From Dictyostelium discoideum (Eukaryota), in contig CM000150.2 in the NCBI GenBank assembly GCA_000004695.1, positions 608,001 to 672,000 of the forward strand: 64,000 bases of DNA, read 5' to 3'. Below are positions 55,020 through 58,459 of this stretch, piece after piece; position 1 is the stretch's first letter; every line of letters begins with the position of its first letter. A program made the position numbers and the translations under genes. The notes under the pieces were generated by a model. That model saw only the letters and a program-made list of their open reading frames with translations. It was not told the origin of the DNA and made no database searches.

Positions 55020-56171
55020 TTAAGATTCTGACTCTGACCCTGAAGTGGAAGATTTTTGATCTTCTTCATTTTCGTCATCTTCCTCATTTTCATACTGTCT
55101 GGTATATATATTATTTGAATTTTGATTATTGCTATTGTTATTATTACTATTATTATTATTATTATTATGGTTTTGGTTTTGGTATTGGTTAATTGATTGA
55201 TTATAATAGTACTGAGACTGCATATGATTATGAGGTTGGAAAGGGTTTATATTTTCAAAATTATTGTTTCCATTATTATTATTATTACTATTATTATTAT
55301 TATTATTATTATTATTATTATTATTATTATTATTATTATTATTATTATTATTATTATTATTATTATTACTATTATTATTACTACTACTATTATAATTATT
55401 ATAATTATTATTATTACCATTATAATTATTGTAATTATTGTTATTGTTATTATTACTATTATTACTATTGTTATTATTATTACTATTATTATTATTATTA
55501 TTATTATTATTATTATTATTATTGTTGTTATTGTTGTTATTACTATTGTTATTATTGTTGTTATTGTTATTATTACTACTATTATTACTATTATTACTAT
55601 TATTACTATTATTATTATTATTATTATTATTATTATTATTATTATTATTATTATTATTATTATTATTATTATTATTATTATTATTATTATTATTATTATT
55701 ATTATTATTATTATTGAATGCAACTTGCGAATAATTTTGGAATTGGTGAGAGTACATAGGGTGTTGATTTTGGTTTTGATGTGGGTTGTGGTGATGCATT
55801 CCTAATTGATGATTTATATGGTGAATTTGTTGCTGATTTGGCTGATAAATTTGGTGTTGATGTTGTTGGTGTTGGTTTTGGTTTTGGTTTTGGTTTTGGT
55901 GTTGATGTTGATGATGATGATGTTGATGATGTTGATGTTGATGATGTTGATGATGTTGGTGTTGATGTTGGTGTTGGTGTTGGTGTTGGTGTTGATGTTG
56001 ATACTGATTTTGATTTTGATTTTGATTTTGATTTTGATTTTGATTTTGATTTTGATTTTGATGTTGATGTTGATTTTGATTTTGATTTTGATTTTGATTT
56101 TGATTTTGATTTTGATTTTGATGTTGAGGAGTGGGAATATTTGGTAATTGGGTTGTGAGGTTTGAATTCAA
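55020..56171 (-). CDS. Q/N/H-rich low-complexity ORF of uncertain status (no ATG for the first roughly 120 codons); possibly a C-terminal glutamine-rich extension of nfyC (see finding)
   Basis: The track's 'M' is TTG. The frame is open from a stop inside the nfyC last exon (around 56300) to TAA at 55020. It encodes HQHQ/NQNQ repeats, about 200 Asn, then a non-repetitive tail NPFQPHNHMQSQYYYNQSINQYQ...IYTRQYENEEDDENEEDQKSSTSGSESES. Confidence 0.3.
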   Translation of the reverse strand: MNSNLTTQLPNIPTPQHQNQNQNQNQNQNQNQNQHQHQNQNQNQNQNQNQNQNQNQYQHQHQHQHQHQHQHQHHQHHQHQHHQHHHHQHQHQNQNQNQNQHQQHQHQIYQPNQQQIHHINHQLGMHHHNPHQNQNQHPMYSHQFQNYSQVAFNNNNNNNNNNNNNNNNNNNNNNNNNNNNNNNNNNNNSNNSNNSNNSSNNNNNNNNNNSNNNNNNNNNNNNNNNNNNNSNNNNNSNNSNNNNNNNYNNYNGNNNNYNNYNSSSNNNSNNNNNNNNNNNNNNNNNNNNNNNNNNSNNNNNGNNNFENINPFQPHNHMQSQYYYNQSINQYQNQNHNNNNNNSNNNNSNNQNSNNIYTRQYENEEDDENEEDQKSSTSGSESES

Positions 56172-56266
56172 AGGAGAAGGATTTGTTAGTGTTAAGGCTC
56201 TATTATTACTATTGTTATTATTATTGTTAGAATTTAATCTTCCAGAGTTATTAATAGGTATTGGTT

Positions 56267-58459
56267 CTAAGTAGATATTGGAAAGCCCTCTGGTGAATTT
56301 ATATAAGAAGGTTTAATATCATCAACTTTTTTAGGCTTAATTTCATCTCTTGGTAATACATCGATCAAGAAATCGAAAGTCTCGACTCTGGCCACTGCAT
56401 GAATAATATCAGACCGTTGTAAGGTTCTCCTTTTACTTAAATCTGTGTGAATCCATGATCTTGCTGCCAATTCCAATATAAAAAATTCACATGCTTTTGC
56501 AAATAAAATTGGTGCTTCCCATGAAATCATCTATTTAAGAAAAAAAAAAAAAAAAAAATATTAATAAATTTTGTAAAGGAAAAAAAAAAAAAAAAAAAAA
56601 ATTACCTTTACACCTGGATCAGATTTCATAATTTTTTTTATTCTTGCTAAAGGTAAAGTACTTGTGGCACTTGGCAAAGTAGGTGAGCCTTCTTCAACAT
56701 CTTTGTTTATCTTTAACCAAACATCACCCATACTTTTGGTTAACATTTGATCAAATTGTCTTTTATATATAACCATTTGATTATTTTGAACAACCAAAGG
56801 ATCCAAACGAGGACTGTTTGGATTTCTAGGTGAATTTTGTGGCGAACCCGAGAGAAACCCAATTGGTCCACTTATTGAACTACCAGTTGGTGTGAGTGGT
56901 GGTGTAGATAATGGCGAAATAGGAGGTGTGTAATTATTATAATTATGACTTTGATTATAATTAATATTATTATTATTATTATTATTACCATTATTATTAT
57001 TATTATTATTATTATTATTATTATTATTATTATTATTATTATTATTATTATTATTATTATTATTATTATTATTATTATTATTATTATTATTATTACTACT
57101 ACTATTATAATTATTATTATTATTATAATTATTATTATTATTATTATTATTATTATTATTATTATTATTATTATTATTATTATTATTATTATTATTATTA
57201 TTATTATTATTATTATTATTATTATTATTATTATTATTATTATTATTATTATTATTATTATTATTATTATAATTATTGTTATTGAAGTTATTATTGTTGC
57301 CATTATTATTATTATTATAATTATTACTATTATTATTTATATGTAAGTTTTGACTAAGAGAGAGTGAAGAAAGTGAAGGACTTGACATTGGGGTATGAGG
57401 TGAGTCTAAGGAATCGGCACTACCCAAACTCCCATTACTGCTACTATGTGATAAACCATTATCAATTCCAATACCATTGTATTGTTCATTCGGAATTGGT
57501 AATGGTGGTAATAATTGTTTATATTTATTACTATTATTATTATTTATATTTGTGTTATGTTTTCCCAATGTAGTTATTTTAGACTTTTCTGTTGATTTTT
57601 CCAAAACATCAACAGAGTCTTTATATCTATCTCTGTTGCCACTATTATTATTATTTGTAGTAGTAGTATTATTATTATTATTATTTATATTATTGTTGTT
57701 ATCGATATTTCTATCTCTAACTATTTCACTATTATTTGAATGATGATGTTGATTAGAATTACTCATATCAGCATTGTTAGATAAATTACACGGTGTGGAA
57801 TTTTGAAGCGAGAATTGGTTGAAAAGGTTTTGATTGTTAGAGTGATGATTAGGATGATGGTGGTGATGGGGATGATCATGGGCTTGTGGCCCATATGATT
57901 CTGTTAGGCTTACATTATTATTATCATTATTACTATTATTATTATTATTATTATGATTATTATTATTGTTATTATGATTATTATTATTGTTATTATTACT
58001 CGCTCGATTAGATTTATTTTCAAACCAAAGGTGACTTAAGGATGATGGTTGACCATAAATGGGTTTATATTGTTCATTTGAAGACATTGGAGGGTTATTA
58101 TTATTATTGTTTGATTGGTGTGGGTTAAATGATACATTGTTTCCATTGTTTTCGTTATTATAATTATTATTATTATTATTATTATTATTATTATTATTAT
58201 TATTATTATTATTATTATTATTATTATTATTATTATTATTATTATTATTATTATTATTATTATTATTAAATTGATGTAAAGGTGGCGGCGAAAAAGAATT
58301 AGACACTATCCTATCATGTCCAAACTTTTTATGATTATCATGATTGAGTTCTGAATCACTATTTTGTGATTGGTGATGGTGATGATGGTGATGTTGTGAA
58401 GGAATTGGAGGATGGAGTTGTTGGTATTGATGTTGTTGGTGATGGTGATCTTTTGACAT
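56267..58459 (-). CDS. nfyC: Nuclear transcription factor Y subunit gamma (NF-YC / CBF-C / HAP5 histone-fold subunit) with a roughly 600-aa N/Q/H-rich N-terminal region; exons 56606..58459 and 56267..56530
   Basis: The first ATG is at 58457-58459 ([11 protein letters not shown]); the track's M at 58534 is TTG. Exon 1 ends ..[17 protein letters not shown] at a GTAATT donor. A 75-nt intron ends cttaaatag. Exon 2 is [66 protein letters not shown], a near-canonical NF-YC histone fold (compare [63 protein letters not shown]). Stop TAG at 56267. Confidence 0.8.

Follow-up and report, generated by a model that had tools for sequence, protein, structure and literature searches.

Gene Layout at the Locus

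The window considered here is a stretch of 64,000 nucleotides (nt) from Dictyostelium discoideum (NCBI GenBank assembly GCA_000004695.1, contig CM000150.2, positions 608,001 to 672,000). It comes from the reference strain AX4, on a contig which we take to be AX4 chromosome 1. On the minus strand of the window lies a two-exon gene for an NF-YC-like transcription factor subunit, whose reading frame is interrupted directly behind the histone fold. Table 1 presents an overview of the features that make up the gene. With a probability of about 0.86, the locus is best explained as a single NF-YC-like gene that was split by a real 58-bp deletion seen only in the laboratory lineage, leaving a truncated protein and an orphaned, intact tail rich in glutamine and asparagine (Q/N).

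The frame of the histone fold ends at a TAG (56269-56267) located 22 codons past helix alphaC, in agreement with the initial annotation of this stretch, which placed the stop just after the fold. A second open reading frame (ORF) runs for 430 codons from 56312 to a TAA (55022-55020) and contains 199 Asn, 66 Gln and 38 His. Besides His-Gln and Asn-Gln (HQ/NQ) repeats, it comprises five blocks outside the repeats that are conserved, and it ends in a non-repetitive acidic/Ser tail; ALTLTNPSPLNSNLTTQLPNIPTPQ and QYENEEDDENEEDQK are among its predicted peptides. A Q/N/H-rich frame of about 200 Asn with an acidic end, as first described, is thereby upheld. The first Met of this Q/N frame is codon 172 (55799), 124 codons after a TTG at 56171, so that the figure of about 120 codons without an ATG was a fair one. 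The two frames overlap by 15 codons (56312-56267). Since the codons of the Q/N frame start one base 5' of those of the histone fold, it is the -1 frame for a ribosome, rather than the +1 frame as originally stated, and the two are joined by adding 3n+1 bases.

Table 1. Features of the NF-YC-like gene in window coordinates.
Feature	Coordinates	Strand	Basis and remarks
Exon 1, NF-YC-like gene	56606..58459	-	ORF and splice reconstruction; 618 codons, MSKDHH...IMKSDPGVK
Sole genuine intron	56531..56605	-	Splice reconstruction; 75 nt, GTAA...ATAG, T-rich
Exon 2 as read in AX4	56267..56530	-	Translation; histone fold through alphaC, ...SPEGF, four frameshifted codons PIST, TAG
Deletion junction GGGCTT/TC/CAATATC	56280..56283	-	DNA alignments to relatives
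Orphaned C-terminal coding region	55020..56279	-	419 codons and TAA; contiguous with the histone fold in L002-L008 (see text)
Three AATAAA hexamers	54883..54927	-	First bases 54927, 54914 and 54888; 88%-AT sequence 3' of the Q/N stop

The Reading Frame in Related Genomes

The syntenic locus was reached through the protein of the neighboring gene mcfT and fetched from eight other assemblies, namely GCA_054883475.1 (L001), the wild D. discoideum assemblies ACTFIW (L002) and ACTFIR (L004), D. purpureum (L003), D. cf. discoideum ACTFIY (L005) and ACTFIZ (L006), D. citrinum (L007) and D. firmibasis (L008). The NF-YC-like gene is convergent with mcfT, which encodes a mitochondrial carrier, in all eight; in the window, the spacer between the two genes is 304 nt. 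In seven of the eight assemblies (L002-L008), the frame of the histone fold reads through the junction into the Q/N tail as a single uninterrupted frame. When followed from MISWEAP at the start of exon 2, the frame stops after 87 amino acids in the window and L001 only. In L004-L008 it passes unbroken through the Q/N repeats and, after 448-613 amino acids, closes with the conserved acidic sequence ...NEEDDENEEDQKSS.S.SESES. In L002 it stops at 435 amino acids, inside a poly-Asn tract, and in D. purpureum at 197 amino acids. Comparison with orthologs from other Dictyostelium species, which the initial annotation had proposed, therefore finds both parts in one frame in seven genomes.

The reconstruction of the gene is consistent with the public models of its relatives. 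Exon 1 is rich in poly-Asn and encodes the start of histone-fold helix alpha1; the genes annotated in L001 and L004-L008 are colinear with it. Removal of the intron restores KSDPGVK/MISWEAP, which fits the NF-YC consensus K.DEDVKMISAEAP. The annotated products of L004-L008 are 1,124-1,284 amino acids long with 68-104 nt of introns, totals that are consistent with a single intron.

Two of the assemblies deserve separate mention. At L002:11349-15078, on a 37-kb contig, exon 1 and the tail both show further frame changes where poly-Asn is encoded by (AAT)n, and the model uses 259 nt of 'introns'. Either the long reads carry indel errors in these repeats or the variation is real; the non-repetitive junction is untouched. 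In D. purpureum (L003:10980-13396), only an 83-residue histone-fold product is annotated. The frame goes on for about 110 codons past the annotated end, as far as a single stop (..GLQYK*VNIPAN..) that may reflect a short intron, and then on to the conserved acidic end ..SDEDIDSESESEE. Since the frame continues past the annotated product, the public D. purpureum model is badly truncated; the contig itself ends inside exon 1.

Beyond these genomes, NF-YC-like proteins of Acytostelium, Heterostelium and P0119 gave no significant similarity to the tail by BLASTP, and for that reason a 'QYYY' motif shared with distant dictyostelids was set aside as evidence. A metagenome scan for the junction flank found nothing.

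A 58-nt Deletion Shared by Two Genomes

Alignment of the DNA to that of the relatives reveals a clean gap of 58 nt in the window and L001: GGGCTT[TCAACTTATACAATATTTACAATTACAATCTCATACCCAAGAGAGAAAGAATAAAGAA]TCCAATATC, where the bracketed part is missing. On either side of the gap, AX4 and the wild strain L004 have the same sequence, and a 2-nt TC microhomology leaves the breakpoint ambiguous within 56282-56281. As 58 is 3x19+1, the loss equals exactly the shift between the two frames. The 58-mer is absent from the entire window, and L002 and L004 both contain a 30-mer taken out of it. Conservation of the missing codons extends as far as D. purpureum (GFQYIQYLQLQ..QER), and other NF-YC proteins have the corresponding Y..LQQ motif behind the fold; on both counts, the AX4 state is the derived one.

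A perfectly open, coding-like downstream frame is also what would be expected if the reference carried an assembly or sequencing error and the real AX4 frame were intact. The lesion, however, is a 58-nt gap in unique, non-homopolymeric sequence, and the same junction is present in the independent assembly L001, which differs from the window elsewhere within 20 kb. Over 20.3 kb, the two are separated by 6 mismatches and 12 gap openings, and their junctions are identical. Within the 3.6-kb gene, the only other difference is the length of one AAT unit (one Asn) in the poly-Asn of exon 1 at window 56990-56992. With a defined indel of a length not divisible by three reproduced in independent sequence, an error in the reference is highly improbable. 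The deletion is real rather than an artifact and, among the assemblies compared, it is seen only in the laboratory-strain lineage. The initial annotation had offered a single-base assembly indel and a true gene with a long Q/N-rich C-terminus as one option; the latter part holds in seven genomes, while the indel gives way to a deletion of 58 nt that L001 carries as well.

The laboratory strains AX2 and AX4 both derive from NC4, and a deletion found in the two of them would probably be older than their separation. The new assemblies were generated de novo from Nanopore and Illumina data by Holland et al. 2025, who worked with AX2-214, a pair of diverged wild D. discoideum, two candidates for cryptic species and strains of D. 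citrinum, among others (PMC12745789). L001 is most likely AX2-214.

Splicing, Frameshifting and Read-Through

Several routes by which AX4 could still join the two frames were considered. Enumeration of donor and acceptor pairs yielded no plausible intron between the histone-fold and Q/N frames, which bears out the earlier remark that no GT..AG pair splices them. Past the histone fold, a GT occurs only once, as GTTGATGA at 56326, and the AG acceptors in a compatible phase lie no closer to it than 323 nt, with open-frame sequence of 30% GC in between. All other phase-compatible GT..AG pairs would remove conserved histone-fold helices. A GC..AG candidate at 56286-56267 spans 20 nt, which, set against a minimum of about 50 nt, is far too short for a real Dictyostelium intron. 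Splicing was therefore rejected for want of a credible GT..AG or GC..AG pair. Read-through of the TAG was also rejected, since the next stop in the histone-fold frame follows 10 codons on. Slippage at an A6 run fails as well: the run, originally placed at 56311-56316, is actually at 56332-56327, upstream of TGA, TGA and TAA in the Q/N frame, and cannot be the shift site.

If ribosomes were to shift to the -1 frame, or bypass, within the overlap at 56312-56267, AX4 would make a full-length protein after all. The 15-codon overlap and the intact downstream ORF are what such recoding would require. Against it, the zero frame of exon 2 contains no X XXY YYZ heptamer as far as 56200, and no homopolymer of four or more is present in 56313-56267. 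Moreover, relatives need no shift, so that no such signal could have been selected, and a recent deletion already explains why the downstream ORF is intact. Recoding in AX4 is scarcely credible on these grounds, and programmed frameshifting, which the initial annotation had listed as an option and thought unlikely, finds no support.

The public annotation of L001 deals with the same break in another way. At L001:11353-14789, equivalent to window 55020-58459, it models one gene of 1,113 residues across both ORFs. This model needs 95 nt of introns, made up of the real 75-nt intron and a 20-nt bridge, and the only 20-mer with GC..AG ends is the candidate rejected above. The protein guessed from this bridge had no match by exact look-up. 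An intron of 20 nt is not credible biologically. The bridge would be a pseudo-intron that hides the truncation, and the full-length laboratory product is most likely an annotation convenience.

State of the Orphaned Tail

The five non-repeat blocks of the tail are conserved across six genomes. Over these blocks, which amount to about 130 codons, the ratio of non-synonymous to synonymous differences per site (pN/pS) is 0.12-0.35 for all pairs; between AX4 and wild D. discoideum there are 7 synonymous and 4 non-synonymous differences, with a pN/pS of 0.12. Signs of decay were looked for in the AX4 tail, which has 0 stops in 419 codons, no relaxation of constraint and no excess of non-synonymous changes. 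Judging from these substitution patterns, the tail is, or until recently was, functional coding sequence under purifying selection. Since the tail is fully open without relaxed constraint, the deletion is evolutionarily recent, and the lack of decay does not speak against it.

Base composition and transcript signals were followed across the same region. The GC content is 26-39% across the TAG down to about 55700 and falls to 17, 12 and 7% only past 55020. The hexamer AATAAA is absent from the first 300 nt behind the TAG (72% AT) and present three times in the 135 nt that follow the Q/N stop (88% AT). This cluster is likely to mark the true 3' end of the transcript.

In principle the Q/N ORF could now be expressed alone, by reinitiation or from an internal Met as a gene of its own, and the split gene would then yield two products. 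Its frame is intact and offers Met codons at 55799, 55757 and 55223. Their contexts (GGAATG, CCTATG and CATATG) are, however, unlike the A-rich context of the real start, AATCATG, and no AT-rich, promoter-like spacer precedes them. The 470 nt upstream of the first Met, reaching back to the TAG, are 72% AT, open in frame and homologous to internal coding sequence of a single gene in seven genomes. In addition, the second assembly (L001) models one gene over both ORFs. Together with AATAAA signals that appear only after the Q/N stop, these observations make separate expression very unlikely, and they speak equally against the independent gene that the initial annotation had entertained. The deletion in a single gene remains the preferred explanation of both ORFs.

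Over the HQ/NQ repeat and the block that follows it (window 55720-56200), some 160 codons are open in a third frame as well (SKSKSK...TSTPTPT...SPIPKLFASCIQ), which outscores the Q/N frame in a naive codon model. ORF length and codon scores are therefore unreliable in repeats of the CAA/AAT type. A simple codon-usage score favored the Q/N frame in the non-repeat and poly-Asn segments and was ambiguous in the HQ/NQ repeats, where the KSKS/TSTS frame is open; it was not relied on.

Identity of the Gene

Membership in the NF-YC family is clear from the histone fold. The exon-2 region matches the Pfam families PF00808 (E=5.9e-17) and PF00125 (E=6.4e-13), and NF-YC/HapE chains account for all of its best matches in the PDB (E=1.1e-33 to 1.7e-28, query residues 52-136). 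The NF-YC signature ...FAKA.E.FI.EL..R.W.H.....RRTLQ..D......FDFL.D..PR is present, with helices alpha1, alpha2, alpha3 and alphaC in an H2A-like fold. In animal NF-YC, the Gln-rich C-terminus is an activation domain. A Gln-rich region C-terminal to the fold belongs to the same polypeptide in the seven related genomes, but not in AX4 and L001, where the TAG precedes it.

The label nfyC, under which the gene was first described, is imprecise, as the gene is an NF-YC-type paralog on chromosome 1. Two ORFs of the window are identical to the AX4 proteins DDB_G0267702 and DDB_G0268318, and mcfT is a further neighbor. These chromosome-1 neighbors rule out DDB_G0273479 and DDB_G0273545, which, going by dictyBase naming, lie in the chromosome-2 duplication. 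The latter two are the genes named nfyC-1 and nfyC-2 (PMC6873476 supplement), and one further well-conserved 'nfyB/C type gene' is listed, DDB_G0268506 (PMC6873476). The ID of this gene falls in the chromosome-1 range. Chromosome and family taken together, the gene in the window is probably the NF-YC-like paralog DDB_G0268506.

None of the Dictyostelium NF-Y type proteins has been functionally analyzed (PMC6873476), and in a study with AX2, insertional mutants of DDB_G0268506 were not recovered (PMC7190356). If the ID is right, the failure to obtain mutants is compatible with a truncated allele that is still needed, although it is no proof.

No protein of D. discoideum or D. purpureum came up when protein databases were searched for homologs of the junction region, the tail and exon 1. 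Exact look-ups in protein databases likewise did not find the 705-amino-acid model of the truncated product, the Met-started tail ORFs or the guessed bridged models of 1,114 and 1,113 amino acids. Neighboring AX4 proteins are present in the protein collections, yet no product of the NF-YC-like gene was retrieved, whether from D. discoideum, D. purpureum or run-derived assemblies.

Upstream of the gene, about 3.7 kb of the window (58535-62263) has no ORF of at least 90 amino acids on either strand, which is unusual for a gene-dense genome. No gene is called in the matching syntenic stretch of the other assemblies either.

Predicted Consequences of the Deletion

The ancestral allele, kept in wild D. 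discoideum and sister species, encodes a protein of about 1,120-1,280 amino acids in which the histone fold runs directly into the Q/N/H-rich half and ends in the conserved acidic tail. In the laboratory lineage, the microhomology deletion of 58 bp after SPEGF shifts the frame to read PIST and then the TAG. The predicted AX4/AX2 product is thus a protein of 705 amino acids ending in ...SPEGFPIST, which would keep the N-terminal region and the complete histone fold and lack both the conserved post-fold motif and the entire Q/N/H-rich region, presumably an activation or disordered region. Since the complete fold is kept, the 705-amino-acid product may be expected to retain dimerization with a partner of the NF-YB type, and its effect could be hypomorphic, neutral or interfering. 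The remaining 419 codons, 1.25 kb after the stop, would form an unusually long and coding-like 3' untranslated region of the same mRNA.

Certain points weigh against this account of the locus. The structure of the transcript, the stability of the mRNA and the truncated product are all matters that we infer. Only two genomes carry the deletion, both probably from one isolate, NC4. The assignment of L001 to AX2-214, although the most likely one, is made by elimination from the strain list of PMC12745789, and identity with DDB_G0268506 is deduced from chromosome and family. Finally, the public protein of the gene was retrieved neither by homology nor by exact look-up.

The event itself is ordinary, a recent lineage-specific frameshift deletion of a known kind. 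It is a doubtful, although conceivable, extension that NC4, AX2 and AX4 carry a natural separation-of-function allele, in which the fold is kept and the activation or prion-like Q/N half is lost, and that this allele measurably alters regulation or development relative to the wild, or else that the tail is made as a second polypeptide.

AX4 is the reference for a major model organism, and at this locus the species is not represented by its reference: a conserved transcription factor subunit is truncated directly after the domain that forms the DNA complex. The annotation of L001 predicts a full-length protein, which is probably not made in laboratory strains. The allele must be known in studies of this factor, and equally in comparisons of Q/N domains that use AX4 protein lengths. 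The difference of 58 bp also makes a simple marker for the polymerase chain reaction, by which the laboratory lineage can be told apart from the wild isolates of this sample.

Comparison with Known Systems

The arrangement of the locus resembles programmed -1 ribosomal frameshifting in that a single transcript carries two long ORFs, which lie in the 0 and -1 frames and overlap. It differs from that system in having no slippery heptamer and in not being conserved, as the relatives have a single frame.

Members of the NF-YC / CBF-C / HAP5 family are the gamma subunit of the CCAAT-binding factor NF-Y and dimerize with NF-YB before NF-YA and CCAAT DNA are bound. Chains from Arabidopsis (NF-YC2), human (NF-YC) and Aspergillus (HapE) can be aligned with the histone fold of the present gene over 80-85 residues. 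Like animal NF-YC, the ancestral allele has a Y..LQ motif behind the fold and a long C-terminal region rich in Gln. In contrast to the family, the Asn-rich N-terminal extension of 618 amino acids is unusually long, and the AX4/L001 allele is cut off before the entire C-terminal half.

The gene may be compared as well with strain-specific truncating deletion alleles. As in those alleles, one ancestral ORF has been broken by an out-of-frame microhomology deletion, the orthologs in close relatives are intact and the downstream part is still open. Unlike them, the structured domain is spared here, so that the allele need not be null, and one annotation hides the break behind a 20-nt pseudo-intron.

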